Assembly (NCBI GenBank): GCA_964510585.1
Contig: CAZECW010000004.1
Location: forward strand, 3,606-67,605
Source: an uncultured archaeon
GTDB lineage: Archaea > Asgardarchaeota > Jordiarchaeia > Jordiarchaeales > Jordiarchaeaceae
Direction: 5' to 3'
Length of the DNA stretch: 64,000 bases
The stretch's first letter is position 1; each line of letters opens with the position of its first letter. The notes under the pieces were generated by a model. It saw only the letters and a list, made by a program, of their open reading frames with translations, was not told the DNA's origin and ran no database searches. Of this stretch, positions 1 through 45,784 are shown piece after piece. Both the position numbers and the translations under genes were made by a program.

Positions 1-10
1 TAATGCAGCG

Positions 11-403
11 GTGAAGCTGAGAATTGTTAAATCCGATGAAACTGTTATGAGACCAGAGGAAGAGATACCCTTAGAAATAGTTAAGTTTTCCCCAGCAAAA
101 CTAGCCACGGAAACAGCGGACCTTGTAACAAACTTCATCACATTAATAGACTGCGTCCAATTAGGAGACTACGCCCGGGTGGATAATATAGTCCCCATAA
201 TGGACGACATAATACTCCTCATGGAAAACTACACAGGACTGAATGACAAGAACTACTGGGTTTACAAAGAGATAACCGCTTGGCGTGACAAACTCAAAAA
301 CGAGCCTCCAGACCTTGTAATTGACTCCGAAGACGCCAAAAAGATAGAATATGACGCGGTAAGGTGGTTTAAAGACTTCCGCCAAAGAATAAGACAATTA
401 TAG
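11..403 (+). CDS. Hypothetical protein, possibly 5'-partial because the reading frame is open to the window edge. It sits immediately upstream of the ESCRT-II-like gene.
   Basis: ORF with GTG start at 11 and open frame back to position 2. No recognisable motif. A short spacer of 17 bp (404-420) separates it from the next gene. Confidence 0.35.
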   Translation: MKLRIVKSDETVMRPEEEIPLEIVKFSPAKLATETADLVTNFITLIDCVQLGDYARVDNIVPIMDDIILLMENYTGLNDKNYWVYKEITAWRDKLKNEPPDLVIDSEDAKKIEYDAVRWFKDFRQRIRQL

Positions 404-420
404 AAGAGGAGCCATAAAAG

Positions 421-1155
421 ATGGGGATACGGGAATTACGCGACAGGATGGAGAAAAAAAAGTACATGCAAAAAAAGGCCACAGAATTCAAACTGGAGGA
501 AATAAAAAGCGACCTGGAAACTGCAACAGAAACAAAAGAGAAACTGGAAGAAATCGCTAGAAAATATGGAGTCATCATAGCCACCAGTCCCAAACTCCAG
601 GACGAAATTGAGAGAATCAGAAAACAGTACGGAATACCCAAAGAATCCATAATTACCCAAATAATTTCTGAAGAAGAAGTACTCAAAAAGGGAGCAATGG
701 GAATAGGAACAAAAATCGACCACGAAAAACTGGGAATGCTACTCTACCAAAGAGCCCTTCTTAAACGCAAAGAAAATGGAGGAATAATGACCTTCGCGGA
801 AGCCTACCTACTGACAAACACGGGAAAACTCGCCCAAAAACTAGAAAACAAAGACATTGAAAAAGCAGTAAAAATACTTGAGAAAAACAAACTCATACCA
901 GGAACACGCCAACTGAAAAGCGGAGTAAAAATAATAAGCTTCTTCCCAATAGAACTCACCGACGACCAAAACGAAGTACTAAGCATAGCAAGCAGAAGCG
1001 GAATCATCACCCTAGAAGAAATAATGCTAAAAACAGGTTGGACAAAAACCCGCGCACAAAACGTACTACAAACCCTAGAAGAAGAAGGTATAACCCGAAA
1101 AGACGAAAGCTACGCACACGGAGAAAAATACTACTTCCCAGGATTTATGCACTAA
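421..1155 (+). CDS. ESCRT-II subunit Vps22/EAP30 (SNF8)-like protein with tandem winged-helix domains.
   Basis: The C-terminal 130 aa align colinearly with human SNF8/EAP30: KRKENGGIMTFAEA matches HRNGGLITLEEL, and GWTKTRAQNVLQTLEEEGITRKDES…YYFPGF matches KWETERARQVLEHLLKEGLAWLD…HYWLPALF. The N-terminal part is predicted coiled-coil. Confidence 0.6.
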   Translation: MGIRELRDRMEKKKYMQKKATEFKLEEIKSDLETATETKEKLEEIARKYGVIIATSPKLQDEIERIRKQYGIPKESIITQIISEEEVLKKGAMGIGTKIDHEKLGMLLYQRALLKRKENGGIMTFAEAYLLTNTGKLAQKLENKDIEKAVKILEKNKLIPGTRQLKSGVKIISFFPIELTDDQNEVLSIASRSGIITLEEIMLKTGWTKTRAQNVLQTLEEEGITRKDESYAHGEKYYFPGFMH

Positions 1156-1327
1156 AAAGTTCTCCAATCTCAGAAAAAGCTCTTCACAAATTTCTCTCAT
1201 TTTCCAAAAAGCCAAACCAACCAGAAGACAACTGTGACACAAAAACCTTCCCTTTTTTCAAAATATTAGGAACACTTGAACTAGAAACCAGAATTTAAAA
1301 AAAAGAGGGGAGAGGGGATTTTCCGCA

Positions 1328-3058
1328 CTACTCTGGCGGAATTTCGGCATATATGGTAGCCATATCTATACCTATTCTCCTGTTGTGTGCATAGTACGCT
1401 GCGAAGATTAAACCGCCCAGGCCGAATACGAACACGTTGAGTAGGAATCCCTGCAGAGCCAGTGCTCTTATGGCTGCAAATATTACGAAGGTTGTGCCGA
1501 AGAACGCTATGATACCAGCAATGGTGATGACGGGTATGCGGCCCACTTGCCACTTGAATCCTCTCTCGTAGATTTCTGGTTTAATGTATGGGAACAGTAT
1601 TGCTGCCATAGCTCCGAACCAGAGCATAGTTGTATCCATAACCACAGTATCAAAGGCTGCCATGAAGATGTCGAGTGATGAGAGCAGAACACCCGCAACG
1701 GCAACTATGGCTACTAGTGTGGTTGCCCAAACTGGGCTGTGCCATCTCTCACTAACCTCGGCAAACTTCACTGGGAATGTTCTGTCGAATGACCATGCAA
1801 AGGTAGTTCTAGCAGCGGTGATAAGGAATGGTGGAATGTCGTTCATCAACCATAGGGCTCCCGCTATGGCAATTAGGAACGCGATAGGCCCTGAAGCGTA
1901 TGGAACCTGTAGTGTTGCGTAGAATGGTAACTGGGTTCCTATAGGAGCTGGCCAGCTGGGAAGGGCCCATGGAGGTATCAGCGCCAGGTACATTGAGAGG
2001 TTGTCGCCCCATGCAGCTTGCAGGGCAGCGTATAGACCCGCGTATTCGGGGTTCATTGTGAGGGCCCATGTAATGTCGCTCTGAGCTTCTGCTGCGACGA
2101 CGTACACGTTTGCGAAAAGTCCGCTGGTGTTTAGCGCCAGGAAGCTAATTCCAATATAGTATGCCGCAATTATTAGGGTTCCGTAGACTACAGATATTAT
2201 CATGTTTCTGTTGGGTTCTTTCATCTCGCCGCCCACGAATGTGGATGCGGTGAACCCGATGTAAGCCCAGGTGAGCAGTGCTACTGCGCTGACTGTGTCA
2301 TCCATTGGGGTGGTGGCAAGGATACCATTCCAATAGTGAGCGAGGGCTGCTTCAAAGTAGTTGTTGAATAGTCGGGTAAGGGCGTTGTCCAGCCCTTCAC
2401 TTGTGATGAAGTCTATGGGGTTAGAGTAGGCTAGGGCGTAGTTGACCATGGCGTTGGCCGTGTTTCCAGTTATCAGGTAAAATATTGTGAAAATGCTTCC
2501 TATTGCTGAGATGATGAGCATGGCATTTAGTACTTTTCCAAAGATGTTTAGTCCAGCTACTGTGACTATGTAGAAGACCACCACCAAAATTATCCCCACT
2601 ATTATACCGGCTTCTTTGGACTGCATCCAGGTACCTATCTGGAACAGCCCGTCTGTGGGGACTCGCCCAATGACTTGGAGTCCGAAGCCGAGGAAGGCGG
2701 TGTCCAGGAAGGCGATGATGCCGAAGGATAGTGCCACGGAGACCCACCAGACCCAGCTGCTTAGGAATCCTATGAAGGGACTCAGTGTTCGGCTGATGTA
2801 TACGTAGCCGCCGCCGGATCGGGGCATTGCTACTCCGAACAGGGCGAAGACAACTGCAGCGGATATGGCGGGTATTGCTCCTATGGCGAATGCCAGTGGT
2901 ACGTTGGCCAGTGGAAGTGCCGCGGGCGTGTTTACTGAGTATTTGTTGATTCCTCCGCCGATGACGTTGCAGAGCACTATTGATAGGGCGGTGAACCAGC
3001 CAATTTCACGTACTAGGCCTGTTGCATCTCTTGCGAAGGTTACCTTTTTTGCTCCCAT
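1328..3058 (-). CDS. APC-superfamily amino-acid/polyamine permease.
   Basis: 576-aa highly hydrophobic protein with about 12 predicted TM helices and G/A/I/V-rich segments typical of APC transporters. Confidence 0.7.
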   Translation of the reverse strand: MGAKKVTFARDATGLVREIGWFTALSIVLCNVIGGGINKYSVNTPAALPLANVPLAFAIGAIPAISAAVVFALFGVAMPRSGGGYVYISRTLSPFIGFLSSWVWWVSVALSFGIIAFLDTAFLGFGLQVIGRVPTDGLFQIGTWMQSKEAGIIVGIILVVVFYIVTVAGLNIFGKVLNAMLIISAIGSIFTIFYLITGNTANAMVNYALAYSNPIDFITSEGLDNALTRLFNNYFEAALAHYWNGILATTPMDDTVSAVALLTWAYIGFTASTFVGGEMKEPNRNMIISVVYGTLIIAAYYIGISFLALNTSGLFANVYVVAAEAQSDITWALTMNPEYAGLYAALQAAWGDNLSMYLALIPPWALPSWPAPIGTQLPFYATLQVPYASGPIAFLIAIAGALWLMNDIPPFLITAARTTFAWSFDRTFPVKFAEVSERWHSPVWATTLVAIVAVAGVLLSSLDIFMAAFDTVVMDTTMLWFGAMAAILFPYIKPEIYERGFKWQVGRIPVITIAGIIAFFGTTFVIFAAIRALALQGFLLNVFVFGLGGLIFAAYYAHNRRIGIDMATIYAEIPPE

Positions 3059-3661
3059 TTTTTAAGTCCTCCTTCCTAGATTGGACTTTCTTCTAAAATT
3101 TTTGTTTCACTTATATAAGATTATCTATTTACAATTGTATAGTACCACGGTAAAAGTCGAAGTGAACCAAAAAAGAGGAAGTATGGATTTATCCAAGGTG
3201 GATTAAGGAAATACCAAAGAAAATTTTATTTATCTTAGAAATTAAGACAAAAAAGATAATTTAACTAATAATATAAGAATAAGTCTTGTTGGCAGGGGAA
3301 TTATATAAATAATTATTATTTGTAATTATTTACATAAATATTAATAACTTAATAAATATTTATATGTACCTAAAACATAACTAATAAGCTTAAACCTTGA
3401 GAAAATTCAAAATTGTATATAGAGCAGAACAATTTTAACCCAATAAAAATTGTCGTAAGAATCCTGCTTGATGGACAAAACCGTTAAAAGAAAAAACTAA
3501 ACGTATAATCTTATAAACTAAGTGGTTTAGGCAAATAATTTTTAAATATAAACAAAAGCACATATAAGTCAATTAAACATCCCCCCCAAAAAAAGACTCT
3601 AAAAAGGTAAGAAGATGGGAAATCCATCCCCAACAAAGGGAAACGCAACGTAGCAAAAACA
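3059..3661. promoter_or_regulatory. AT-rich 600-bp divergent intergenic region, presumably holding promoters (TATA/BRE-like) for the permease (-) and glycoprotein (+) genes.
   Basis: Very AT-rich with many TTATATA/TTTAAATA-like boxes, lying between divergently oriented genes. Confidence 0.4.
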
Positions 3662-6600
3662 GTGATTGAAATGGAAAATAGGAAAAAGGCATCAGCAATA
3701 CTCATAATTTGCGTAATACTCTTCCTTACTACAGCCCTCATAGTTACCAACACAATACCTCTAACACTACCTCCCAGTCAGAATAATTCCCTACAACTGA
3801 AGGAAAACGGAACTTATGCAACAATCCAAATAAATGGAATATATTACAATGTAACTTGGTTTGAAATAAGCAATGAAATCATAAATCAAACAATCGAGAA
3901 CAGCGTCGTAGGCACAAATACTTACTATCTTAACATCACTTGGAACAATTATGTTAATCGTTCAGTTGTCATGTCCTTCAACACCACAAATGATACAATA
4001 TACTTCAATGGTGTCCAACTATACATAGGGTATAATAATTCTCCACCAGCCTTGAGGGTGGAGCTAAGAAACGGAACCCAACAGAACTCAAAATGGGTAC
4101 CAAGCAACGAAACAATACTATATGAGGAATATAGCATTGACAATTTTACACAAGAGGCAAATTGGGCTACTTTGCTAAATGAGACATCTATACTACTTGT
4201 TCCATCACACACTTATTTCTTACTGCTCAGGTTGAATGAAACCACAGGTGATGATAATAGTAGTTATTATTATTGGCGGTGTACTCCAGACACAGGTGAT
4301 GATAGTGATGGTGTCGATGAAGGAATTGCCCTCGCCTTGGAATTTGAAGATGTAAGTGATTTAAATAACTCTGCTTTTTGGGCTGACTGCGCTGATGATT
4401 ATGATTGCTGGATGATTATGAATTTCACAAAGCTTCAATATACCCTAAGCCTACAGCTCCCTGTGAATTGGACGCTGAGTTATCTCATGGTGGATGTTTT
4501 TAACAGCACTGGATCCTTCTTTTACCACATTTCGAATAGTATTTCGGGAAACATTACTGGGGGTACGGGAAGCTTCAACGTTACTCTGCCCGATGGCGAT
4601 AGAATGTGTCTTGCAGTTATAAAATTTACAGAGATACGTCCAGTTTCATGGTTAACTGTAATTGAGGGTACTAGGAATTCTGATGGCTACGCACGAACCG
4701 TTGGAAACATGAGTGAAGCTCAAAGGTTCAGGTTGCCACATGACTCAAATAATCTCTCAATACAAATATTGATACGCAACACGGGTCTGAAGGAGAATCT
4801 CACAGCGGAGATATGGAATGCCACCTTCGTTGAATCAGTGGGGAGCTATAACCTAACTGGGAAAGTGGTTGATTTGGAGGTGCCATACTGGAACGTTACC
4901 TCAGACTATAATTGGCTAACACTCAACTTTGAAGGCTACTTCTCTGAAGGAGACTACTTTCTAGTAATACATACAAAAGATTGGGCGGGCGATCCAAGTA
5001 GCGGTCCATTTTATGATTGGGCAAGTCACACCAGCTTTTACGAGATTCCCCCATCGGAGGGCTACGAAATATGGACTTCAGAAAATAACCACAGCAATTG
5101 GAACTGGCAGGATATGCGAGATCCCTATGGTCACAGGTACTGGCACTGTATGAAGGTGGAGTCGTACAATTCAACAGACACAAGAAACATTAGCGTCTGG
5201 GTTAACGGTAAGCTGGTCGGTGACAATTGGGTGTGGAATGATACCGTTTGGATACCGGTACAAAAGACGCAGGGCGATAATGTTACCTTCACCCTAACAA
5301 GTAATATGGACTTTGAATACAGCTTAGACTATGATATTTATTACTATAATTATACCTATGATTTGAACAATGAAACACAATTCTATGTTAACGATTACCC
5401 TATGAGCAACAGCACCCAAGGCTATTTCACCCAGATCTTTACCAGCAGCCAGCTGGGATACAACAGTAGCACGGGACTGGTCGAACTGACTTTCAAGGCT
5501 TGGAACATAACCAGTAAAGAGTGGATAAGCACAAGCGTTAACGCCACAATAAGCGCCTCAATGTACTACATAGAAAACGTTTCGGTATCATCTGCAACGG
5601 AACTAAACTATACCTATGTACATAGCAGTGACGCTGCCATTTCTCTATCACAAGAATCCCTATACATCGACTACTCCAACCTAAATGTATACGCAGTTAA
5701 CACGGTTCAACTTAATGGAACAACCCTCCATGGCAACTGGACAGACAACACCCTAACCAATAAGATAACAGTACTCAAAAACGCATTTAACGACACACAA
5801 ATAGGACAAGAAATCTTGGCGGGGGACAATGTAACAATCACCGTAAACTTTTACTCTATAGTAAACATTGAATCCCCAACCCTACCCTACATTGGCGAGC
5901 AAGTCACACTAAACATTACAAATGTAGTCAACACGCCCGACTACTTGAACGTGACCATAATAAGACCCAATGGCACAATACAAACACTCAATGGAACCAA
6001 ACTAAATTATGAAAACTGGAGCGTTAATTTCACACCCGAAGAAACTGGCAAATACATCGCATCAATCACCACACAATCAACAGGCGGAAACATAATAAGA
6101 AGAGAAGTAGCAAATCGAAGCGTAGAAAAATACTACTATGTATTCACCGTGTATCAATTAGGCTTGGGACTAAATAAGCCCGACATTGTCGCCGAGGAAC
6201 CGCTAAGCCTAGGAATACCGTATAATTTGCAGATTTGGGTAAAATACTTACCCTTCAACTCCTCGGAAACCCCACAGGTTAATGTAAACAACATAATAGT
6301 TCTCCTGAATGGCAGTAAAACAATAAATGACCCAGTGTTCAATAGTTTAACGGGGTTCTGGGAGCTCACAATAATCTGGACCAGCCTCGGCAACCTAAAC
6401 ATCACAGTGAACGTTACTGATGATAACGGTAGAACTGTCGTCGAAACTTTCATAGTCCAAGTGGTCTACCCAAAACCACCCTCACCTATACCAATATTAT
6501 CATTAATGACAACATACGCAGCCATAGGTCAGTTTGATATAGACACACTGGCAAGAATCGCCACCATCGTATTCTGGCTACTAATAATAGTTCTCATCTT

Positions 6601-6664
6601 TATACGCGTCTTTTATCCAGACACTCTAATCAAAATCCACAAAAAACTACTGAGAAAAACATGA
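3662..6664 (+). CDS. Large secreted or surface (S-layer-like) glycoprotein with an N-terminal signal/anchor and a C-terminal TM anchor.
   Basis: 1000 aa. N-terminal hydrophobic segment ASAILIICVILFLTTALIV. About 55 N-x-S/T sequons. C-terminal hydrophobic helix IATIVFWLLIIVLIFI followed by a basic tail KIHKKLLRKT. Confidence 0.6.
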   Translation: MIEMENRKKASAILIICVILFLTTALIVTNTIPLTLPPSQNNSLQLKENGTYATIQINGIYYNVTWFEISNEIINQTIENSVVGTNTYYLNITWNNYVNRSVVMSFNTTNDTIYFNGVQLYIGYNNSPPALRVELRNGTQQNSKWVPSNETILYEEYSIDNFTQEANWATLLNETSILLVPSHTYFLLLRLNETTGDDNSSYYYWRCTPDTGDDSDGVDEGIALALEFEDVSDLNNSAFWADCADDYDCWMIMNFTKLQYTLSLQLPVNWTLSYLMVDVFNSTGSFFYHISNSISGNITGGTGSFNVTLPDGDRMCLAVIKFTEIRPVSWLTVIEGTRNSDGYARTVGNMSEAQRFRLPHDSNNLSIQILIRNTGLKENLTAEIWNATFVESVGSYNLTGKVVDLEVPYWNVTSDYNWLTLNFEGYFSEGDYFLVIHTKDWAGDPSSGPFYDWASHTSFYEIPPSEGYEIWTSENNHSNWNWQDMRDPYGHRYWHCMKVESYNSTDTRNISVWVNGKLVGDNWVWNDTVWIPVQKTQGDNVTFTLTSNMDFEYSLDYDIYYYNYTYDLNNETQFYVNDYPMSNSTQGYFTQIFTSSQLGYNSSTGLVELTFKAWNITSKEWISTSVNATISASMYYIENVSVSSATELNYTYVHSSDAAISLSQESLYIDYSNLNVYAVNTVQLNGTTLHGNWTDNTLTNKITVLKNAFNDTQIGQEILAGDNVTITVNFYSIVNIESPTLPYIGEQVTLNITNVVNTPDYLNVTIIRPNGTIQTLNGTKLNYENWSVNFTPEETGKYIASITTQSTGGNIIRREVANRSVEKYYYVFTVYQLGLGLNKPDIVAEEPLSLGIPYNLQIWVKYLPFNSSETPQVNVNNIIVLLNGSKTINDPVFNSLTGFWELTIIWTSLGNLNITVNVTDDNGRTVVETFIVQVVYPKPPSPIPILSLMTTYAAIGQFDIDTLARIATIVFWLLIIVLIFIRVFYPDTLIKIHKKLLRKT

Positions 6665-7434: not shown

Positions 7435-8304
7435 GTGGGTATGTGCTCTGTTTATTTGGACTGTGTAGTCTTTATTTTTTGGGGTTTTTGTTTGATGGTG
7501 GTTGTTTTGGATAAGCGTATTGATAGGATTGATCGCAAGATTGATAAGGGTAGGATTAAGAAGAAGCGTTCTGAGGATTTGGAGACGACGCAGGCGGTTA
7601 TTGATAAGAGGACTGCTATGATTTTGTATGATTTGATTAATAGGGGTTATTTGGATAGTATGAAGGGGGTTGTGGCTTCAGGTAAGGAGTCGAATGTTTA
7701 TTGGGCGACTGCTGAGGAAAATGGGGTTACTCGAGATTTGGCGGTTAAGATTTATAGGACTTCGACTATGGATTTTAAGAGGATTTGGGTTTATATTCAG
7801 GGGGATCCTCGCTTTACCAAGGTTAAGAGGGATACGCGTTCCATTGTTTATGCGTGGGCTGAGAAGGAGTTTAAGAATCTTAGGTTGGCGGATGAGGCGG
7901 GTGTTAGAGTTCCTAAGCCCGTTGTTTGGAGGGGTAACGTTCTTGTTATGGAGTTTATTGGTGAAAATGGAGTTTCTGCTCCTAGGTTGAGAGAGGCGAT
8001 GGTTGAGGATCCGGAGCCTGTTTTCAAAATTGTTTTTGATTATGTTGTTAGGCTTTATGAGAAGGCGGAATTGGTGCATGCGGATCTTAGCGAGTATAAT
8101 ATTTTGTACTGGGATGAGCCGGTAGTAATTGATGTTTCTCAAGCGGTTCTCCTAAGTCACCCTTTAGCATTAGATTTTTTGGCTCGTGATCTAAAGAATA
8201 TTTTAAGATATTTTTCAAGTTTAGGGGTGGAGGTTCCCTCCCTAGAGGAAGCATATAAAAAAGTTACGGGTGAAGAATTGGTTTGGAGACAAGAGAGTTT
8301 ATAA
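7435..8304 (+). CDS. rio1: RIO-type serine/threonine protein kinase (Rio1).
   Basis: GKESNVYW nucleotide-binding loop, catalytic VHADLSEYNIL, and a metal-binding D in IDVSQAV. Length and order are typical of archaeal Rio1. The true start is probably a few codons downstream of 7435. Confidence 0.85.
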   Translation: MGMCSVYLDCVVFIFWGFCLMVVVLDKRIDRIDRKIDKGRIKKKRSEDLETTQAVIDKRTAMILYDLINRGYLDSMKGVVASGKESNVYWATAEENGVTRDLAVKIYRTSTMDFKRIWVYIQGDPRFTKVKRDTRSIVYAWAEKEFKNLRLADEAGVRVPKPVVWRGNVLVMEFIGENGVSAPRLREAMVEDPEPVFKIVFDYVVRLYEKAELVHADLSEYNILYWDEPVVIDVSQAVLLSHPLALDFLARDLKNILRYFSSLGVEVPSLEEAYKKVTGEELVWRQESL

Positions 8305-8864
8305 AAGTTCCGAAAGAGCGGGTGGCAGTTATCATAGGTTCAAATGGACAGGTTAAATCCATGATTGAAAGGGAAACTAAAACAAGGCTAGACATCAATA
8401 GTGAAGATGGCAGCATAGTTATCACTCCAACTGAGGAAACAGATGATCCTTTAGCGGTTTGGAAGGCTAGAGATATTGTGAGGGCTATTGGCAGAGGCTT
8501 CAGCCCCACAAGAGCCCTTAGACTCTTGGATGAGGGGGAACTGCTGGAAATTGTGGATCTCACACTTTTCACCAATAAATCTAAGAATTCTCTGACCAGA
8601 ATTAAGGGTCGGATTATAGGCGCCGGAGGAAAAACGAGAAAAATTATAGAGGAGATCAGCGGTGCCAATATATCAGTTTACGGGCACACAGTGGCCATAA
8701 TAGGGAATGTTGAGCAGGGCAGAATGGCTAAGGAAGCGATAATGATGCTGATTAAGGGTGCCCCCCACTCAACAGTTTATAGTGTCCTCCAGAAGAGAAA
8801 AAGGGCCCAAAAGAGAAAATGGACCTCTTGGAAGACATTGGGAGAAAATCAAATCGGAAGCTAA
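8283..8864 (+). CDS. KH-domain RNA-binding protein (archaeal Dim2/Pno1-like), co-transcribed with rio1.
   Basis: Two KH-like segments with GxxG loops (IIGSNGQV, IIGAGGKTRKIIEEISG). Overlaps the rio1 stop by 22 nt. Rio1–KH pairing is a conserved archaeal arrangement. Confidence 0.7.
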   Translation: METREFIKVPKERVAVIIGSNGQVKSMIERETKTRLDINSEDGSIVITPTEETDDPLAVWKARDIVRAIGRGFSPTRALRLLDEGELLEIVDLTLFTNKSKNSLTRIKGRIIGAGGKTRKIIEEISGANISVYGHTVAIIGNVEQGRMAKEAIMMLIKGAPHSTVYSVLQKRKRAQKRKWTSWKTLGENQIGS

Positions 8865-8865
8865 A

Positions 8866-9183
8866 TCAAATTCCCTTCAGATAACCATTATCCTCAAGCC
8901 ACTTTGCCTGCCCTTTAGAGTATCTCCAAATTATATCCGCCCTGTCATCCTGAAAGTCCCAAGGGGCAACAATGACGACGTCACCTTCTTTGATCCAGAC
9001 ACGTTTCTTCATTTTTCCTCTTATTCTGCTGAGTCTAACTTTCCCATCGGTGCACTTTACTTGAAGGCGATCGTAGCCCATCATTTTGACCACTATTCCA
9101 AGAATTTCGCCCTGTCTTGGAGTGCGAACCTTCCTAAATTCGCCTTCGTCTTCTTCTATGAGGTCTTTTTTCTTCGGTGTCAC
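8866..9183 (-). CDS. eif1a: Translation initiation factor aIF-1A.
   Basis: 105 aa. S1-like OB fold core GEILGIVVKMMGYDRLQVKCTDGKVRLSRIRGKMKKRVWIKEGDVV with a typical acidic/aromatic C-terminus. Confidence 0.85.
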   Translation of the reverse strand: MTPKKKDLIEEDEGEFRKVRTPRQGEILGIVVKMMGYDRLQVKCTDGKVRLSRIRGKMKKRVWIKEGDVVIVAPWDFQDDRADIIWRYSKGQAKWLEDNGYLKGI

Positions 9184-9287
9184 AATTTCAACCTTCTTTT
9201 AGTCCCTTAAGAATACGTTTCCGTTCTTTTAAAATTTCCTAAAGGACTGATGGGAATTGTTAGGTTTCCTAGAGGAGGTGTCGATTA

Positions 9288-10355
9288 TTAAGTTTCTGGT
9301 GAGAGGATGGTTATTTCTTCGTCTATTTTTATTGCTTGTACTATTTCTCCTTCTTTAAGGTTTGTGTGGGTTTGCTCCCTTTTTATTTCGGTTATTTCGT
9401 ATGTTTTTAGGTCCATTAGTTGGATGGTGTCTTTAGTTTTGGAAATTATGAGGTATTGTTTTGTTTCTGGTTTCCAGCTTTGTATTTCTGATTCCCAGAA
9501 GTCCTTGTACTGTATGATTTGTTTTTCTCCGGTTTTGGGGTTTTTTCCTATTATGTTGCCTTTTTCTATTTTTTCGAATATGAGGGTTTTGTCCATTAAT
9601 TGTATTATCTCGCCTGGCGTGAAGGAGGGGAGTCTCACTGATACTGATGTTGTTCCTTTCTTTTTTCCATCCTTCATTCCGGACAATTTGAACGATTCTT
9701 GGATGTTTGCTCCCATTTGTTCTTTTGTGGATGTGGCAATGTTTTTCGCGAGTCCAGTTGAGCTAACGTAGAGGTCGAAGCCTTCTTTTTTCTCCTTTAT
9801 TTGGGGTATGTACTCGTCTTTGTATCTTTCAGATTCGAGGGCTTTGTCTATTATTTGGTAGATTTGTTGTCTCTCTTCTTCGCTTATTCTGCCTCTTAGC
9901 CCTCTGAACTGGACTATGGCCTCGTAGGCGCCTTGCTTTTTCTTGGTGCAAATGCCGCAGGGTGAAGATTCGAGTTTTATGGTGACTTTGACTGTTTCAC
10001 TGATGGTAGTATCGTTTTTTTTGGCGGTTATTAGAATTGGAACATCGATTTTTCCTGTTAATTCCACTTCTTCTGCTATTTGGGGTTGTATAATTATTTC
10101 AAATTCTGGTGAGTGTTTTATGAAACGCGGTGAGTTCTGCTCTATTACTATCTCTAAGAATTCATTCGGGTTAAAGCTATTGGTTTGCACCCACTTTTTG
10201 GAAAGCTTGTAACTGTAACAGTGTGGGCAAATTCTCACTTCAAACTCATGTTTAACAGTGAATGGGGGATTCTTCTTGAGGTAACATGATTCACAGAGGT
10301 TTTCAATCAGAGGGGCATCTGTTTTTCCACATAGCGCACAGAATCTTTTTGTCAT
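9288..10355 (-). CDS. nmd3: NMD3-family 60S ribosomal export/biogenesis protein homolog.
   Basis: N-terminal CxxC…CxxC…CPHC zinc-finger cluster (FCALCGK…CESCY…CPHCYSY) and about 355 aa, matching archaeal Nmd3. The 3' half of the gene has sharply A/C-biased codons. Confidence 0.7.
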   Translation of the reverse strand: MTKRFCALCGKTDAPLIENLCESCYLKKNPPFTVKHEFEVRICPHCYSYKLSKKWVQTNSFNPNEFLEIVIEQNSPRFIKHSPEFEIIIQPQIAEEVELTGKIDVPILITAKKNDTTISETVKVTIKLESSPCGICTKKKQGAYEAIVQFRGLRGRISEEERQQIYQIIDKALESERYKDEYIPQIKEKKEGFDLYVSSTGLAKNIATSTKEQMGANIQESFKLSGMKDGKKKGTTSVSVRLPSFTPGEIIQLMDKTLIFEKIEKGNIIGKNPKTGEKQIIQYKDFWESEIQSWKPETKQYLIISKTKDTIQLMDLKTYEITEIKREQTHTNLKEGEIVQAIKIDEEITILSPET

Positions 10356-10382
10356 TTACATGTTACCTCATAAAGTATGAAT

Positions 10383-10700
10383 CTACATAATTACTTTTTG
10401 TGCGTGGGCTACGCCTTCAATTTTTATGATTCCTTGGGGGGGTATTAGTCCCTCAATTATGGCTTGGGAAACAATGTTGTTGCCAACTATGTTTATTATG
10501 GTTCCCTGTTTGATTGCTGCTATGCCCTCCTCTATTGAGACCAGCTCACCACAATAAAATTCCTTTTTCACCTCTATTTTGAGCTTGCCTTCTCTAAAGG
10601 TTTTTCCCAATATATCCTCGTCGCAAACAGCAACCATAATTTCATTATTTACTCTCCTTATATGAAGGTAGACTCGCATCTTAAAGCTCTCCTTACTCAT
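10383..10700 (-). CDS. DUF424-family small protein, conserved downstream of aIF-2beta in archaea.
   Basis: About 105 aa from the internal ATG (MSKESFKMRVYLHIRRV…). The longer ORF would overlap the aIF-2beta gene. Confidence 0.5.
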   Translation of the reverse strand: MSKESFKMRVYLHIRRVNNEIMVAVCDEDILGKTFREGKLKIEVKKEFYCGELVSIEEGIAAIKQGTIINIVGNNIVSQAIIEGLIPPQGIIKIEGVAHAQKVIM

Positions 10701-10725
10701 TATGGTAGGTGGCTTTAAAGCAACT

Positions 10726-11136
10726 CTATTGTATGGTTTTGATTGATGCTCTTGCTCCGCAGGCTTCACACACAAGGAAGTGGAATCTATCCTGTTTTTC
10801 AATGTGGGTGTCTGGCTTTCCACACTCGGAACAGAGAACGTAGGTGTGGGTGTATCTGGATATTAGTTCATCAAGAGCCTTGTTTGTAAACTTTCCCTGG
10901 AAAATCGCTCTCTGCCCTTCTATAATACCTGCGGTTGCCAACTCCCGCATAAGATACTTCATTAAGTGCTGAGGGTCTCTATTCAGAGCCGAAGCTATAT
11001 CTCTAAAGTTTCTAACAATTGTCCTGTTTCCCTCAACAAAAATTACTGATTTGGGGATCTCAAATCTTTTGCGTTCAAAAACTTCAGGGGGTAACTGTTG
11101 ACGTGCTCTATCTAATAGACGCTCATAGTTTTCCAT
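10726..11136 (-). CDS. eif2b: Translation initiation factor aIF-2 beta subunit.
   Basis: 136 aa. Conserved core, plus a C-terminal C4 zinc ribbon CSECGKPDT…CEACG. Confidence 0.85.
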   Translation of the reverse strand: MENYERLLDRARQQLPPEVFERKRFEIPKSVIFVEGNRTIVRNFRDIASALNRDPQHLMKYLMRELATAGIIEGQRAIFQGKFTNKALDELISRYTHTYVLCSECGKPDTHIEKQDRFHFLVCEACGARASIKTIQ

Positions 11137-11156
11137 TACACAACCACCTCGAGTTT

Positions 11157-11828
11157 TTAGAGTTTCCTGTAAGTCTGAGGCCTAGGCTCATAAATTGTTC
11201 CATCAGACAACAACTCTGTGAGGCCGGACTCTAATTCTTTAAGTGATAATCCAGTTTCCTTCTTTATGACTTGGAAATCCACTCCTTCACCTTCGTCAAA
11301 TTTTTCGATAACTTCCATAATGCGGGTAATCTTACTGGCCAAGTCTTCTTCAGGTACAGTTTTATCTTCTTCAGATACTCCAATTTCTTCTTTTAGAGTA
11401 CTAGTCTCACCTATAGGTTTTAACACCATTAACTCCAATTCTCTAACAATTTCCCAATTGGGATCATCAACATTTATAACAAGTTCTGGGACTAAATAAA
11501 CCTCGCCCCGATACTCTTTAACCTTACCGATAATGTCTACTATATCACCAATCTGAACCTTATTAATAGGGGAATTCTGATTCTTCCAGAACTTAGCCCT
11601 AATTGTTTCGGTACCGTCATCAATGGTAATGCTACCAAAGTCTGATTGAGAGCTGATAAACTTGTCGACCACAGTTCCCATAACCCTAGCCCTCTGAATC
11701 TCTAATCCTGAACCAGTAACAATAAACCGCCCATTAGGTTTTTCCACCCACTTACCATTAACCAGATCCGAAATGTGTACCTTATACGCGGTGGCCCTCT
11801 TTTTAATGATTCTACTCAACTCCATCAC
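11157..11828 (-). CDS. OB-fold nucleic-acid-binding protein with a C-terminal winged-helix domain (RPA32-like).
   Basis: Central OB-fold-like region (GRFIVTGSG…VDDGTETIRAKFW…GDIVDIIGKVKEYRGEVYL), an acidic linker, then a wH-like tail (VDFQVIKKETGLSLKELESGLTELLSDGTIYE). Confidence 0.45.
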   Translation of the reverse strand: MMELSRIIKKRATAYKVHISDLVNGKWVEKPNGRFIVTGSGLEIQRARVMGTVVDKFISSQSDFGSITIDDGTETIRAKFWKNQNSPINKVQIGDIVDIIGKVKEYRGEVYLVPELVINVDDPNWEIVRELELMVLKPIGETSTLKEEIGVSEEDKTVPEEDLASKITRIMEVIEKFDEGEGVDFQVIKKETGLSLKELESGLTELLSDGTIYEPRPQTYRKL

Positions 11829-16344: not shown

Positions 16345-17715
16345 ATGGCACAAACACAAAAAGGAGATAAGTACGAAGTCAAAGACCTAAAACTAGCACC
16401 AGGCGGACGAGCAACAATCGAATGGGCAGAATCAAGAATGCCCGTACTTATGCAAATAAGAAAAAGATTCCAAAAAGAAAAACCACTCAAAAACACCATA
16501 GTAGGAGCATGCCTCCACGTAACAAAAGAAACAGCGGTACTTGCAAAAACTCTAAAAGCTGGAGGAGCAGAAGTCTACCTTTGCGCCTCAAATCCCCTAT
16601 CAACACAAGACCATGTAGCCGCGGCACTAGTAGAAGAAGGAATAAACACATTCGCTTGGAAAGGCATGGACTACGAAGGCTACTACCGAGCAATAGCCAA
16701 CGTTATTAAAGGAGAACCGAACATCACACTAGACGACGGCGCCGACCTAGTATCAACCCTAATCAAGCTAAAAAGAGGAGAAACTGGCGAGGAAATCAAA
16801 ATAGTCAAGAAAATTCTCGGAAGCCGTACAGACTGGGCGGACAAAGTATGGGCCGGAGCCGAAGAGACCACAACCGGCGTAATCCGCCTCAGAGCCATGG
16901 CAAAAGATAACGTGCTATTATACCCAATTATAGCTACAAATGATACCCCCACGAAATGGGAAACATAAACACCACCCGTGTTTAAGCCCAAATTTGACAA
17001 CTTGTGGGGAACTGGACAAAGCACCATAGACGGTATACTAAGAGCAACAGCAGACCTCATCGCGGGCAAAATTTTTGTAGTTGCAGGATACGGTCACTGC
17101 GGTAGGGGTGTAGCGCTAAGAGCAAAGGGACTAGGAGCGAGAAGAGTCATCATCTGTGAAATAAATCCCCACCGAGCACTAACAGCCGCCTTAGAGGGCA
17201 TGGAAGTAATGCCCATGAGCGAAGCCGCTGAGGTAGGAGACATTTTCGTAACCGCCACGGGATGCAAGAATGTTATAAATGCTGAACATATGAAAAAGAT
17301 GAAAAACGGGGCAGTAATGTGTAACACAGGCCACTTTAATGTGGAAATAAATATACCTGATTTGGAAAAAATAAGCGTCAGCAAGAGAGAAATAAGACCA
17401 CTAGTCGATGAGTACACACTGGAAGATGGAAGAAAAATCTATCTGCTCGCCCAAGGCAGGCTCGTGAATCTTGCATGTGCCGAAGGACACCCAAGCGAAG
17501 TTATGGACATGAGCTTTTCGGATCAGGCTTTGGCTGTGGAGTGGATTGTTAAGAATAAGGATAAGCTGTCTGGGATGGGTAGTGTGGTTTTGGATATTCC
17601 TGAGGAGATTGATAGGACTGTTGCAGAGTTGAAGTGTAAGGCTATGGGTCTTAGATTGGATGTTTTGACCCCAGAACAGGAAGCGTATTTGTCAGGTTGG
17701 GCTGAAGGAACCTAG
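16345..17715 (+). CDS. ahcY: Adenosylhomocysteinase (S-adenosyl-L-homocysteine hydrolase), interrupted by an in-frame TAA at 16966-16968 inside a 30-nt insertion.
   Basis: Colinear with SAHH throughout: EETTTGV, the NAD-binding [18 protein letters not shown]. Where archaeal enzymes read TKYLFDN, this sequence reads [16 protein letters not shown]. Both halves are in the same frame. Confidence 0.85.
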
Positions 17716-19503: not shown

Positions 19504-19611
19504 CAAACTTTATCGCGTAGAAGTGTAAGAAAACTTTATTTTGTTCGGCTTTTAACATTGTGTTCAAGAGAGTTTGTCATTTGTTTTCCTTTGCTGATTG
19601 GATGGCTGATT

Positions 19612-20037
19612 ATGCCCTGTAACAATTTGCATGAAGAATTGGAACAGTTTATATCAAAGCTTAGAACAATCTCTGAAAACGGTACCCCCATTATTGTGGA
19701 GGGCTATAAGGATGAGAGAAGCTTAAGAGAACTAGGGGTTCGAGGAATAATTCTTAGATTATCTGGAAGAAAACTCATAGAAGTCGCTGAAGAACTTGCC
19801 AATTATGAGGATTTCCTGATTCTAACCGACTTTGATCGCAAAGGACAAGATATGGCGCTGCGCCTCTTGAAGTATCTAGATCACCACAAGGCAGAGTTAA
19901 CGCTGAGTTTCAGGAGAAGATTTAAAAATTTAACCTCAAAAGTCACCTGCGCCATAGAAGGATTAGCATCCTCATATTTCACTCTTCAAAACCAAAACAA
20001 TAAAAACATGGAATTCAAAGTTGAAAAATTCTTTTAA
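19612..20037 (+). CDS. Small standalone Toprim-domain protein.
   Basis: IIVEGYKDERSL…ILTDFDRKGQ gives a conserved E plus DxD Toprim signature. About 140 aa. Lies immediately upstream of dnaG. Confidence 0.5.
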   Translation: MPCNNLHEELEQFISKLRTISENGTPIIVEGYKDERSLRELGVRGIILRLSGRKLIEVAEELANYEDFLILTDFDRKGQDMALRLLKYLDHHKAELTLSFRRRFKNLTSKVTCAIEGLASSYFTLQNQNNKNMEFKVEKFF

Positions 20038-20196
20038 TGACAAATGGGAGAAAGACATAATTATATCCGAAAGTACGTTAATGTTGAAAATGGTACGTCA
20101 TTATGTTAAAGCTTAATTAAATAAACAATCACTCTTACAAAATTTCAATCATAACACACTTTTATTACCTTATTTCATTATGGAGGTGACGCTTAT

Positions 20197-21435
20197 ATGG
20201 TTAATCGAAATGAGTTTAGCACAACAAAGTACATTATAAAAGCTAAAATAGAAGTAGACGGAGTTGTTGAAAAACCAGACGTTGTGGGAGCAATATTTGG
20301 ACAAACCGAGGGGTTGCTGGGCTCTGAACTTGACCTGCGTGAGCTACAGAGAACTGGGCGAATAGGGAGAATAAAAGTTACAATAGAGTCCCATGGAGGC
20401 AAATCAACGGGAACGGTAATAATTCCCTCAAGCCTTGACAAAGTAGAAACTGCAATGCTAGCAGCTGCTGTGGAATCCGTCGACAGAGTAGGACCATGCA
20501 CTGCTCATGCAACCTTAGAGATAATCGAAGATGTACGAGAGGTTAAAAGAAGAAAGATAGTTCAGAGAGCAGCAGATATTATAAGAAAATGGTCCGAAGA
20601 AGTGTCGCCTGAAAGTCAACAACTCACAGACGAGGTTTTGGATGCAGTTCGAGTAGCTGAAATCACTAAGTACGGTCCTGAAGAACTACCAGCGGGACCA
20701 GCCATAGACAGCTCTGACGATATAATAATAGTTGAAGGGCGGGCGGATGTTCTTAATCTTTTGAGATGCGGCTACAAGAACGTTATAGCGATGGAAGGAA
20801 CAAGTATACCAAAGACTATAATCGATCTTAGCAAGAAAAAAACGATCACGGCCTTTCTAGATGGGGATAGGGGAGGAGACCTGATTTTGAAGGAATTACA
20901 GCAAGTAGCGGATATAGATTATGTGGCCCGCGCCCCTCCAGGAAGGGAAGTTGAAGAACTCACCCAAAAGGAAGTGGTTAAGGCTCTGAGAAACAGACTG
21001 CCTGTAGAGCAATTAGAAGCGGAAGAACCCAAAAAGAAGGAGAAGGAAAAGGAGAAAAGAAAAGAGCAGGAAAAAGAAGAGAAAAAGGAAAGAGGGTGGG
21101 AAGAAAAAAAACCCAAAAGGACTGAAATTCCTCCCAAAATTAAGCTTCCAGAACAGATTCTAAACTACCTGCCTAACATAAAAGCCTCAAATAAGGCTAT
21201 ACTTTTAGGGAAAAACTTGGAATTAATGGAGGAAATGGATGTATCTTCGTTGGCAGAGCGCCTGAAAGAAGTGGGCTCGGTTAGAGTTATCATTTTTGAT
21301 GGAATTATTACTCAGAGGTTGGTAGACCTAGCTCAGGATAAAGGGGTGGAGTATATTTTAGGGGTAAGACAAGAGAATGTTACAAAGAAACCCTTAAATC
21401 TAAAGATTGTAGAGTTCAACGAGGTAATAACTTAA
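20197..21435 (+). CDS. dnaG: Archaeal DnaG-type primase (exosome-associated), with a lysine/glutamate-rich low-complexity insert.
   Basis: N-terminal archaeal-DnaG signature [32 protein letters not shown]. Toprim [14 protein letters not shown]…[27 protein letters not shown] insert near 21000-21130. Confidence 0.85.
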
Positions 21436-21474: not shown

Positions 21475-22596
21475 TTGAAGGAAAAAAGTGAAAAGATTCG
21501 ACATATTTCTACTTCCGTTCGTGAAGAGCCTTTAAAAAAGAAGGAACGAATGCAATATCTTTCCGTGGTGGAGCTGCAGCCATCAGGTTTTCCTTTCCGG
21601 CTTGTGGGAGAGGAGCCCCCTATAGCCTTATTGACCGACGACGCTGAACTGTTCCAAGCGTATGCTAGGGAACAGTGGGCTGGTATTTGTGTTAAGAAGG
21701 GGGATTACCTATTTGACCAACTAGTTTTCCCAGATTTCGCCTTTAAAGTTTCCGACGCTCAGCCAGCTCGGGGAAGAATAGGTTTTTCCACACGTTTCAT
21801 TCTTAAGAGGAAACCCTTCAGTGAGGAGAAGAGACCGTCAATTCGTTTTTCAGATGTTATAGGTCAAAACGAAGCCAAAAGCAAGTGTCTGATAATCAAA
21901 AAATACTTGGAAAATCCGAAAGCTTTTGGAGACTGGGCGCCGAGAAACATTCTTTTCTATGGGCCTCCAGGAACGGGGAAAACAATGCTGGCTCAAGCAC
22001 TGGCTAACGAAACAAATGCACCCTTCTATTTAATTAAATCCACAGATTTGATAGGAGTTAATGTTGGTGACGCTTCAAGAAGAATACACTCTGTTTTCAA
22101 AATAGCATCAGACAATGCGCCTAGCGTCATATACCTCGACGAAATTGACGCTATAGGGTTAGACCGCAGCTTCCAAAACATAAGAGGGGACGTATCAGAG
22201 GTAGTTAATGCTTTGTTGGGGGAGCTGGATGGATTAACCGCGAATTTTGGCGTAGTATGTATAGGAGCTACAAATAATCCAGTCATGTTAGATAAGGGGA
22301 TCAGAAGCAGATTCGAAGAAGAAATCGAGTTCAAACTTCCCAACGCTGAAGAACGGGAACAAATCCTTAGACTCTACATATCAAAAATGCCTTTGCCGGT
22401 AAAGGCAGACATTAAAAAGATAGTTAGAAACACTGAAGGCTTCTCTGGTAGAGACCTTAAAGATAAAATCCTTAAAGCAGCGCTCCACAAAGCCATACTT
22501 CAAGAGGAAAAATGTGTAACACAAGACATAATAGACGCCATACTTAAACAACTCAATGACAAGTCGCCAAAAGAAAAACCCAAAATGTTCACTTAA
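21475..22596 (+). CDS. AAA+ ATPase with an N-terminal CDC48/VAT-N-like domain and a single AAA module.
   Basis: Walker A GPPGTGKT, Walker B IYLDEIDA, and the second region of homology. The N-terminal about 110 aa resemble a double-psi barrel N-domain. Confidence 0.75.
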   Translation: MKEKSEKIRHISTSVREEPLKKKERMQYLSVVELQPSGFPFRLVGEEPPIALLTDDAELFQAYAREQWAGICVKKGDYLFDQLVFPDFAFKVSDAQPARGRIGFSTRFILKRKPFSEEKRPSIRFSDVIGQNEAKSKCLIIKKYLENPKAFGDWAPRNILFYGPPGTGKTMLAQALANETNAPFYLIKSTDLIGVNVGDASRRIHSVFKIASDNAPSVIYLDEIDAIGLDRSFQNIRGDVSEVVNALLGELDGLTANFGVVCIGATNNPVMLDKGIRSRFEEEIEFKLPNAEEREQILRLYISKMPLPVKADIKKIVRNTEGFSGRDLKDKILKAALHKAILQEEKCVTQDIIDAILKQLNDKSPKEKPKMFT

Positions 22597-25374: not shown

Positions 25375-26406
25375 TCATTTCCTCAGCACTATAATTTGGC
25401 GTGTTAAACTCTTGTGTACCGGTATCAAATGTTTTTCTATTATTCGAAAACTTGTTCCCAAAATAGATTCGTCAACATTGACTGTTAAGGGGGTGCCCAT
25501 ACAGATGTATCCTGCTGAACTAGATAGTTTATCTAATTCCTGTAAGAAGAATTCAATTAGTTTTTCGGGGCGGACGCCTTTGGTGGAGGCCGATCCTCCG
25601 TAGGGTGGATCCGTTGCTATGCTGTCAAATTGGTTGAGGGGGAGGTGTTTGGCGTCTGAAAGTATAATGTTCCAGTTGACTATGTTGAAGTGTAGGAGAT
25701 TCCTTTTTGCACCTTTAACCATTTTTTTGTCTATGTCGGAACCTATGGTTTTGCAACCCATGAGGCCCGCCTCAATTAGAAGACCTCCTGCTCCACAGAA
25801 TGGATCCAAGAAGACTCCTTTGGGTCGAGCTCGAGAGAGATTAACCATAGCTCTGGCGAGATGGGGATTCATGGAACTGGGAATAAAAAAAGGCCTGAAT
25901 TTTGCCTTCCTGAGACCTAAAGCTTTCCTTTCGGATTCCCTGACACTTATCCCAAACAGGAATATGTCTTCCGTTAAAACGCCATAAAATAACTTGTCAG
26001 GATTTTCAAGATTGGCCCTTGCCCCCACCCTCCTATGAATGAGGGCGCCAATTTCTTTTTCTAAAAGAAGTGAGCTCACTTCCGGTGAATAATTTTTTAT
26101 GCGTTTCACTCTAACGGCAAAGGTTTCTTTGGCTGAGATGTGTTTCTGAAAATCTACGTCTCGAAGTGAAGCCATTATCTGGTTGAAGTCTGCTTCACAT
26201 TTAAGCAGTGAAATGCAGCATCTATGAACCATTGCGGCACGCTCAGCTATTCTTTGGCAACTCTCCTCCTCTGCTTTCAAAAGTAGTACTTGGTCATATT
26301 TTTCTGCTTTGTAGTCCATGTTCAGGCTTTCAAGGATTGCTAAGCACTCAGCAGCAGCTATTGTTTTGGTTTCTCCAGATAGAATGTAAAAATGGTTTTT
26401 AATCAC
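25375..26406 (-). CDS. THUMP-domain tRNA (guanine-N2)-methyltransferase (Trm11/TrmG10-like).
   Basis: N-terminal ferredoxin-like/THUMP region. SAM-binding motif DPFCGAGGLLIEAG. Catalytic DPPYG. Confidence 0.7.
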   Translation of the reverse strand: MIKNHFYILSGETKTIAAAECLAILESLNMDYKAEKYDQVLLLKAEEESCQRIAERAAMVHRCCISLLKCEADFNQIMASLRDVDFQKHISAKETFAVRVKRIKNYSPEVSSLLLEKEIGALIHRRVGARANLENPDKLFYGVLTEDIFLFGISVRESERKALGLRKAKFRPFFIPSSMNPHLARAMVNLSRARPKGVFLDPFCGAGGLLIEAGLMGCKTIGSDIDKKMVKGAKRNLLHFNIVNWNIILSDAKHLPLNQFDSIATDPPYGGSASTKGVRPEKLIEFFLQELDKLSSSAGYICMGTPLTVNVDESILGTSFRIIEKHLIPVHKSLTRQIIVLRK

Positions 26407-40550: not shown

Positions 40551-40727
40551 TATTATTCCCTCAAGGGTTGTTAATGGTTTAGATAAAATTTTTTATGGTT
40601 TAGTGGTGACCGTTTCCCTTGATAACTCAACGGTGGCAAAATAATTTTTCGGTTAATAAAGCTTTTGAAGAATTATGGTATAACTTAGAGAAATAAGGAT
40701 AACGTTTTTGGCTGGGAGGTTTACCTA

Positions 40728-41279: not shown

Positions 41280-41382
41280 CTCACACCCACTGTTTAAAAA
41301 TTATTAACTTCTGGGAGGATACCTACGACTCCTTTTTTGGAGTATAAAGTAGATAGGGGGGTGTGTTTATTGAATGTTGGGT

Positions 41383-42441: not shown

Positions 42442-42842
42442 ATTAAATAAGTAAATTTTATGGCATTTAGAATAAAAATATTTTCACACATTTATTGAAA
42501 AAAAGCAGTGGAAACCCTTGAATTTTTCAAAAGTTTTCATCACGCAAAACAATTCCGACAAGATAAGGACATAATTATTTACTTTCCATCATCCTCAATG
42601 AATATTTTCGTGTTTTGGCTTTTACATACATGAAAAACTTCTCGTACTTAGAGGGGAAGAGGGCACTGGAAACTCTGTAAAATCGTTGACGAGGAAAAAC
42701 AAGTTTAACGGAGAGCGCCAGCAATTACTGTATACTTCTTTTTTATGGTTTCAGGATTTCCCAAACAAATATTCTAAAATTGGAAAGTTTCTTTGGCTTA
42801 CTGAAATTGAGTAGAGAAATGAACTAAGGGGGGAAGTGGGGT

Positions 42843-45740: not shown

Positions 45741-45784
45741 AGGACAAATAGTGTAGAGGCAGCATTTATTTTTGGGGTGTTAGC

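Follow-up and report, generated by a model that had tools for sequence, protein, structure and literature searches.

The 64-kb window analyzed here, by which we mean the whole stretch of archaeal DNA under study, opens inside a gene for Vps28, a subunit of ESCRT-I (endosomal sorting complex I required for transport). This is followed on the same strand by a gene for a 244-amino-acid (aa) protein at 421-1155 and then by a convergent permease gene (Table 1). We propose that 421-1155 encodes the Vps22 subunit of an Asgard-type ESCRT-II and is the last gene of a Vps23-like/Vps28/Vps22 operon in a Jordarchaeia archaeon, where a Vps22 dimer would link ESCRT-I to Vps25 and ESCRT-III. We put the probability of this reading at about 0.88. 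The family, the fold, the affinity to Vps22 over Vps36, the operon context and the lineage were computed here, while the mechanism is drawn from experiments on Loki-, Heimdall- and Thorarchaeota proteins.

Table 1. Features at the left end of the window. aa, amino acids; AF2, AlphaFold2; pLDDT, predicted local distance difference test.
Feature	Position	Strand	Basis
Vps28 (ESCRT-I) gene, 3' part only, truncated at the window edge	1-403	+	Pfam VPS28; stop TAG at 401-403
Vps28-Vps22 spacer, 17 nt, operon-type junction	404-420	+	read from sequence
Vps22/SNF8/EAP30 homologue (ESCRT-II), 244 aa	421-1155	+	ATG start, TAA stop at 1153-1155
N-terminal helical region (~aa 1-95)	421-705	+	AF2: long basic helix H3-35, then H39-49, H57-70; pLDDT 57-83
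Winged-helix domain 1 (~aa 100-175)	718-945	+	AF2: H101-114, H125-132, H143-155, E161-164, E170-173; pLDDT ~80-94
Winged-helix domain 2 (~aa 180-244)	958-1152	+	AF2: H181-190, H198-205, H209-221, E236-238; pLDDT 85-96
Intergenic region between Vps22 and convergent permease; end of ESCRT cluster	1156-1327		sequence
Amino-acid permease (AA_permease), convergent	1328-3058	-	annotation of the identical gene on contigs L001-L009

The start codon of the Vps22 gene is well placed, since a Shine-Dalgarno-like GAGGAG, read from the sequence at 406-411, lies 9 nt ahead of the ATG and the N-terminus MG[IL]RE is kept in 19 homologues. Nine of the first 25 residues, likewise by direct reading, are K or R. 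Membrane binding has been reported for human VPS22, and by analogy this strongly basic first helix may contribute to membrane binding here. At the other end of the protein, winged-helix domain 2 carries the conserved terminal motif Y-x-x-G-x-K-Y-Y-F-P-G, and D182, W207, R211, G234 and F239 are invariant in 20 diverse Asgard Vps22 homologues.

Membership of the EAP30 family extends over the full length of the protein. Pfam EAP30 (PF04157) matches residues 2-226 (profile positions 2-216 of 219) with 70.7 bits (gathering cutoff 26.8) and E=1.9e-19, a significant profile match that bears out the first-pass annotation of the gene as an EAP30/Vps22 homologue. When the single protein was compared with all PDB sequences by HMMER/phmmer, human SNF8 was the best solved relative (2zme_A; E=5e-13, 52.3 bits), followed by human VPS36 (2zme_B; E=8.6e-8, 35.2 bits) and yeast Vps22 (1u5t_A; 8e-6). 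The alignment pairs residues 40-239 with SNF8 (2zme_A) residues 45-235. The C-terminal alignment with SNF8 claimed earlier is also as described: the quoted residues GWTKTRAQNVLQTLEEEGI (206-224) and YYFPGF (237-242) are present, and the SNF8 match line across the GWTKTRAQNVLQTLEEEGI stretch reads "w ra+ vl+ l +eg+" and "ge +y+". A profile of the Asgard Vps22 family, built from 20 diverse Asgard homologues, finds SNF8 in the PDB at 2.8e-34 (121.9 bits), VPS36 at 5.4e-13 (52.2 bits) and yeast Vps22 at 2.1e-17, with no Vps25 match. Its positions 4-239 align on SNF8 chain residues 9-239, making the protein colinear with SNF8 from the N-terminal helix to the C-terminus.

The predicted fold agrees with this assignment. 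An AlphaFold2 model based on a 19-sequence alignment (mean pLDDT 80.8, predicted template modeling score 0.74) consists of N-terminal helices followed by two winged helices. In a Foldseek search of the PDB, SNF8 came out on top (2zme_A, 6e-9; 3cuq_A, 1.8e-8; template modeling score 0.51-0.57), with yeast Vps22 (1u5t_A, 2.5e-7) and VPS36 (2zme_B, 2.9e-7; 3cuq_B, 4.1e-6) completing a top five made up entirely of ESCRT-II EAP30 subunits; the next match stands at 1e-3, weaker in E-value by a factor of about 1000. The tandem winged helix anticipated from the sequence is therefore recovered, with SNF8/Vps22 rather than an unrelated fold as the best structural match.

On sequence grounds the protein is Vps22-like and not Vps36-like, SNF8 outscoring VPS36 by 17 bits with the single sequence and by ~70 bits with the profile; for Asgard Vps22 the same placement was reached by phylogeny (Hatano et al., 2022; PMC9192718). 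We rejected Vps36 itself, given that the Pfam scan of the protein contains no GLUE (split PH) domain match and that 244 aa, all covered by EAP30, are too short to leave space for a GLUE/PH domain or NZF fingers. Vps25 was rejected as well: PF05871 has no match at E<=1, versus 1.2e-12 for a genuine Asgard Vps25 from locus L029. A steadiness-box signature has been described in the N-terminus of Asgard Vps22 (Makarova et al., 2024). In our Pfam scan Vps23_core (steadiness box) has no match at E<=1, and because the region is also colinear with the N-terminal helices of SNF8 we treat it as the canonical Vps22 N-terminus.

The same scan raises another reading, that of an ordinary winged-helix DNA-binding transcription regulator merely resembling EAP30. 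HTH_IclR matches residues 194-228, within the second winged helix (E=1.7e-5, 25 bits, cutoff 22), as the sole non-EAP30 family over its own cutoff, and weak TrmB, MarR and DUF7343 matches are seen too. An HTH_IclR match is expected for any winged helix-turn-helix, however, and these matches occupy ~35 residues of the second winged helix, against residues 2-226 for EAP30. The whole-chain fold is that of Vps22, the gene sits in an operon with Vps28 and a Vps23-like gene, and there is no effector domain. An IclR-type regulator was rejected on the ground that its 35-residue match comes without an effector-binding domain, and the Pfam scan, the Foldseek search and the family profile together effectively refute such a winged-helix regulator, which we regard as highly improbable.

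The operon context comes from the sequence upstream. The first-pass annotation had suspected a partial ESCRT component in the open reading frame (ORF) listed at 11-403, and this proves to be Vps28 of ESCRT-I, truncated at the window edge (VPS28 E=1.2e-9, 38.6 bits, cutoff 24.5; profile 92-186 of 188). The frame is already open at base 2, the GTG at 11 in the ORF list is not the true start, and the listed ORF amounts to the C-terminal 130 aa of a 222-aa protein. A metagenome contig carrying the same Vps22 (L001) is 100% identical over its bases 3560-4960 to window positions 1-1400 and reaches 3.56 kb further upstream. There the full Vps28 (L001:3294-3959) has 222 aa and matches VPS28 at E=2.3e-17 over profile positions 2-186 of 188. 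L001 has the same 17-nt spacer before Vps22, and contig L007 keeps it apart from an indel of 1 nt. Lying 23 nt before Vps28 on L001 is the gene for a 248-aa protein with an N-terminal UQ_con (7e-18) or UEV (1.4e-6) match, a coiled coil and a steadiness box matched by Vps23_core (3e-5); by its domain content, this protein is a Vps23/Tsg101-like ESCRT-I subunit.

The cluster had been expected to continue upstream of the window, where Vps25, ESCRT-III/Vps4 and ubiquitin-system genes were named as ones to look for. It does continue, through the UEV and Vps23-core protein, with ESCRT-I genes only: Vps25, ESCRT-III, Vps4 and ubiquitin genes are missing from 10 kb of upstream sequence. Three NCBI metagenome-assembled genomes (MAGs) with a 98% identical Vps22 have no further ESCRT gene within 10 kb upstream, related MAGs have no Vps25, ESCRT-III or Vps4 within 10 kb on either side of Vps22, and the 64-kb window contains no Vps25, Snf7, Vps4 or ubiquitin gene. 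Next to the Vps23-like/Vps28/Vps22 triplet, L001:225-2212 holds in divergent orientation the genes for a 173-aa zf-AN1 protein and for a protein of 231 aa that carries a Zn ribbon at its C-terminus, and then one for a small GTPase of Ras/Arf type. The protein with the Zn ribbon (cluster c18) still lies beside the triplet in 59-67% identical Jordarchaeales genomes whose other flanks have changed, and could be an accessory, specific to this lineage, that binds ubiquitin or cargo.

To place this arrangement among Asgard archaea, we clustered the ORFs around Vps22 in 33 Asgard loci. Vps23-like and Vps28 genes lie directly upstream of Vps22 in 21 of them, namely in Jordarchaeia/Freyarchaeia, Helarchaeota Hel_GB_B and a large group of Heimdall-labeled MAGs. 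In a Jordarchaeales genome whose Vps22 is 60% identical, the triplet is intact and all flanking genes are different. In Loki-type loci and Hel_GB_B, Pfam identifies after Vps22 the genes for Vps25 (PF05871, 1.2e-12; cluster c17), Vps4 (MIT, AAA and Vps4_C) and ESCRT-III (Snf7, 4e-18). By this comparison the Jordarchaeia/Freyarchaeia lineage retains here the ESCRT-I and Vps22 half, and its Vps25/Vps4/ESCRT-III half presumably lies at another locus.

Two further observations concern these loci. The Heimdall-labeled ones (L031-L040, L043 and L014; e.g., L040:9593-9931) carry between Vps28 and Vps22 an ORF of 97-121 aa (cluster c5) that has no Pfam match and may be a free-standing steadiness-box-like piece of ESCRT-I, as mentioned by Hatano et al. 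Moreover, loci L020, L027 and L032 belong to MAGs labeled Thermoproteota or Bathyarchaeota/Bathyarchaeia and present Vps22 in Jordarchaeales-, Loki- (Vps22-Vps25-Vps4) and Heimdall-type synteny, respectively; their taxonomic labels are probably wrong, and non-Asgard ESCRT-II genes are unlikely.

A broader evolutionary proposal, which we consider doubtful, is that in Jordarchaeia/Freyarchaeia, as in Heimdall-labeled and Helarchaeota MAGs, Vps22 is co-transcribed with the Vps23-like and Vps28 genes and stands apart from Vps25, Vps4 and ESCRT-III. The ancestral functional unit might then have been a ubiquitin-recognition module of ESCRT-I plus Vps22, distinct from a scission module of Vps25, ESCRT-III and Vps4, with the eukaryotic ESCRT-I/ESCRT-II boundary a later re-partitioning and the divergent Zn-ribbon protein possibly an ESCRT-0-like adaptor.

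The Asgard origin claimed in the first-pass annotation is upheld by public records. A protein identical to the 421-1155 product is on record in NCBI, JGI, ENA and Logan, and 96-98% identical proteins are named "EAP30/Vps36 family vacuolar-sorting protein" under Candidatus Freyarchaeota or Candidatus Jordarchaeaceae archaeon. Ranked in a one-genome-per-species collection, the nearest Vps22 loci are those of Freyarchaeota SQRJ_82 (98%) and Jordarchaeia RPF2 and QZM_A3 (both 96%), then Jordarchaeum madagascariense (86%) and the complete Freyarchaeota chromosome CP147778.1 (84%). Beyond these come Promethearchaeota, Hel-, Heimdall- and Hermodarchaeota MAGs and one further MAG labeled "uncultured archaeon". 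Some 20 kb of gene order is common to the window and the Candidatus Freyarchaeota/Jordarchaeia MAGs GCA_038849455.1, GCA_038871775.1 and GCA_030587375.2, with 98% DNA identity along 1.4 kb. The names Freyarchaeia and Jordarchaeia denote a single group (Valentin-Alvarado et al., 2024; PMC11291895), and our placement in this class rests on the names of public MAG records.

When 1.8 billion representatives were searched exhaustively with HMMER, 270 relatives came up. Ten of these were looked up, and the seven with source names are Thor-, Odin- or Promethearchaeota proteins or eukaryotic SNF8, in agreement with the report that there is essentially no ESCRT-II beyond Asgard archaea and eukaryotes (PMC9192718). 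Over 25 clusters in this search (P0062-P0064, P0070 and others) consist of ~730-805 aa proteins in which the EAP30 region is C-terminal only (residues ~550-770) and preceded by a long uncharacterised N-terminal part; their named members are all Candidatus Thorarchaeota.

A family that is otherwise eukaryotic invites the thought of eukaryotic contamination, or of a recent transfer from a eukaryote. The protein, however, is only 22-24% identical to eukaryotic SNF8, the GC content is uniform at ~0.41-0.44 across the region, homologous genes lie in intron-free prokaryotic operons on contigs of up to 3.58 Mb in Asgard MAGs, and the gene is kept at 34-98% identity across Asgard lineages. Identity, operon context, Asgard-wide conservation and GC content thus refute this origin, and we give it next to no credence.

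For an Asgard Vps22 in this setting, experiments on other lineages suggest how the system would work. The Vps23-like protein would read ubiquitin via its UEV domain, as Asgard UEV proteins bind ubiquitin (PMC9192718). Vps28 would join the Vps23-like protein to the Vps22 dimer, with ESCRT-I proteins contacting Vps22. In yeast two-hybrid assays, Vps28 and/or Vps23 of ESCRT-I contact Vps22 directly and Vps25 contacts ESCRT-IIIB (PMC9192718). Dimerization of Vps22 would involve its N-terminal helices together with winged helix 1, and the dimer would stand in for the Vps22-Vps36 stalk of eukaryotes. In support of such a dimer, Heimdall Vps22 is a stable homodimer by size-exclusion chromatography with multi-angle light scattering and by crosslinking, Loki, Heimdall and Thor Vps22 self-interact in yeast two-hybrid assays, and there is one Vps22/36-like gene per Asgard genome (PMC9192718). 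The Vps22 dimer would then carry two copies of Vps25, which may nucleate ESCRT-III filaments, and remodeling of these filaments by Vps4 would lead to ubiquitin-directed membrane budding or scission. Vps25, ESCRT-III and Vps4 would be supplied from another locus in this lineage.

The expectation of a second locus draws on Freyarchaeia genomes, whose eukaryotic signature proteins include ESCRT-I-III complexes (PMC11291895). Supplementary Data 5 of that study, in the order SRVP-Freyarchaeia, then Freya-JZ, then Freya-QZM, gives counts of 1/2/2 for EAP30/Vps36 (cog.002769), 1/1/1 for Vps25 (cog.003176), 1/1/1 and 1/0/1 for ESCRT-III, 1/1/2 for Vps4 and 1/1/1 for Vps28.

Several points weigh against a Vps22 dimer that works with Vps25 and ESCRT-III in this organism. 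Unlike in Loki-type and Helarchaeota loci, Vps25, Vps4 and ESCRT-III are not adjacent in Jordarchaeia/Freyarchaeia, and their presence here rests on the published table for related Freyarchaeia genomes rather than on the source genome. A Vps25 profile search, in which shared 5-mers were needed, returned Loki, Hel, Sigyn, Thor and "Bathyarchaeota"-labeled proteins only, none of them labeled Jordarchaeia or Freyarchaeia. The N-terminal helices of the AlphaFold2 model, a proposed part of the dimer interface, reach no more than moderate confidence (pLDDT 57-70). Dimerization is moreover not universal, as the Vps22 of Odinarchaeota, likewise a protein of thermophile origin, is monomeric in vitro (PMC9192718).

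The Odin monomer also feeds the possibility of a heterodimer, in which the protein would pair with another, divergent EAP30 paralogue in a Vps36-like role: its authors proposed an undiscovered partner (PMC9192718), Freya-JZ and Freya-QZM each have two cog.002769 proteins, a further point against a homodimer, and our homologue search picked up weak relatives with shorter coverage (P0037 and P0038). However, the complete SRVP Freyarchaeia genome has a single cog.002769 copy, and two copies in draft MAGs may reflect strain redundancy. The single Vps22/36-like gene per genome and the self-interaction in three lineages reported by Hatano et al. speak against a partner as well, and no second EAP30 gene occurs in the window or within 10 kb. 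We therefore think a heterodimer unlikely. It is also possible to see Vps22 as a stable part of an ESCRT-I ubiquitin-recognition module that reaches ESCRT-III directly, bypassing Vps25, given the tight operon with the Vps23-like and Vps28 genes, apart from Vps25, Vps4 and ESCRT-III. Yet a single-copy Vps25 is kept in all three tabulated Freyarchaeia genomes, which argues that Vps25 is used, and complexes are not defined by gene order alone; such a bypass seems to us quite improbable. We accordingly favor a Vps22 homodimer between ESCRT-I and Vps25.

The ESCRT cluster ends after Vps22; judging from its sequence, the T6 run at 1253-1258 is a possible archaeal terminator. Scans of the window with tRNA and Rfam models found no rRNA and no tRNA, and hence no RNA marker for taxonomy. 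Pfam, applied to 50 more ORFs starting at 11.9 kb, showed housekeeping genes only. An AAA ATPase at 21475-22596 was rejected as a Vps4 candidate, having a PRS2_N/AAA/PRS2 lid architecture without MIT or Vps4_C.

Other genes of the window call for brief comment. The gene at 3662-6664 (+) encodes 1000 aa that include a hydrophobic N-terminal segment, end in a transmembrane-like tail and are very rich in N-x-S/T sequons. No Pfam family is recorded for the homologues in related MAGs, and the product is probably a heavily glycosylated surface protein. A ribosome-biogenesis and translation block follows at 7435-11828 (RIO1 kinase, KRR1/PNO1-type KH, eIF1A, NMD3, DUF424, eIF2-beta and an RPA-like OB-fold), and three Freyarchaeota MAGs show synteny with it. 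The S-adenosylhomocysteine hydrolase gene at 16345-17715 (+) is split into two same-frame ORFs, one of 207 aa (AdoHcyase profile 1-216) and one of 245 aa (AdoHcyase_NAD and AdoHcyase 216-286), by an in-frame TAA at 16966-16968 that falls exactly on the domain boundary. Because 10 independent contigs of different assemblies show this division into 207 + 245 aa as well, it is no one-off assembly error; it is a genuine split gene or a nonsense mutation fixed in the population. Two consecutive same-frame ORFs at 19558-21435 (+; 159 and 412 aa), each with a Toprim domain, could represent either two genes or a single DnaG-like gene that has been interrupted.

Genes of nucleoside/ribose-phosphate salvage type are concentrated at 39666-57745, with IF-2B-family proteins at 45785-46864 and 55286-56572, two PfkB kinases, a phosphoribosyl pyrophosphate (PRPP) synthetase, a PNP_UDP_1 phosphorylase, two Amidohydro_3 enzymes and an APS-kinase-like P-loop protein; another PRPP synthetase is encoded at 26403-27290. 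By exact look-up, the protein of 55286-56569 has no public record, probably owing to another choice of start, and that of 45785-46861 occurs in the JGI sample that also yielded one of the Vps22 contigs. The 620-aa FG-GAP beta-propeller at 59708-61570 (+) also scores against the BBSome families BBS2_Mid, BBS7 and PTHB1, probably through generic FG-GAP repeat similarity. Finally, GC content rises to 0.515 at 62000-64000, versus ~0.41 in the remaining window, and a DDE transposase (DDE_Tnp_1_6) lies there on the minus strand at 62336-63313; the likely explanation is an insertion element close to the end of the contig.

Among eukaryotic signature proteins, those of ESCRT-I and ESCRT-II belong to the clearest, and their genes flag the window as Asgard, from the thermophile-associated Jordarchaeia/Freyarchaeia, a lineage of hot springs. 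This Vps22 and its family are already known: the protein is in public databases, its relatives are correctly named, AsCOG cog.002769 is defined and the ESCRT content of Freyarchaeia has been published. The value of the assignment lies in the annotation of the window, and it brings nothing new to the field. The position of Vps22 with ESCRT-I, away from Vps25, ESCRT-III and Vps4, is mildly informative, in that it fits direct ESCRT-I-Vps22 contacts in organisms without Vps36, and adds little.

Among characterized proteins, human SNF8/EAP30 (2ZME chain A, 3CUQ chain A) has the same helices and two winged helices, a similar length (258 aa versus 244 aa here) and a C-terminal aromatic G-x-x-Y-[YW] motif also present in the window protein. 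The differences are the low identity given above and the operon that the window gene forms with ESCRT-I genes. Eukaryotic SNF8 further pairs with a paralogue, VPS36, that bears a GLUE domain, and no such Asgard partner is known (PMC9192718). VPS36 itself (2ZME chain B, 3CUQ chain B) has the paralogous EAP30 core in common with the window protein. Vps25 (PF05871) is also a tandem winged-helix subunit of ESCRT-II and a distant structural match (3cuq_C, E=1e-2), but it has no sequence or profile match to the window protein, and Asgard Vps25 forms a separate cluster (c17). The closest known counterparts are the Asgard Vps22 proteins of cog.002769 (e.g., Heimdallarchaeota AB_125), which belong to the same family, are ~240 aa long and, across diverse members, are 26-47% identical to the window protein. 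Asgard Vps22 is usually encoded near Vps25, ESCRT-III and Vps4 (Hatano et al., 2022; PMC9192718), whereas that of Jordarchaeia/Freyarchaeia lies beside Vps23-like and Vps28 only.

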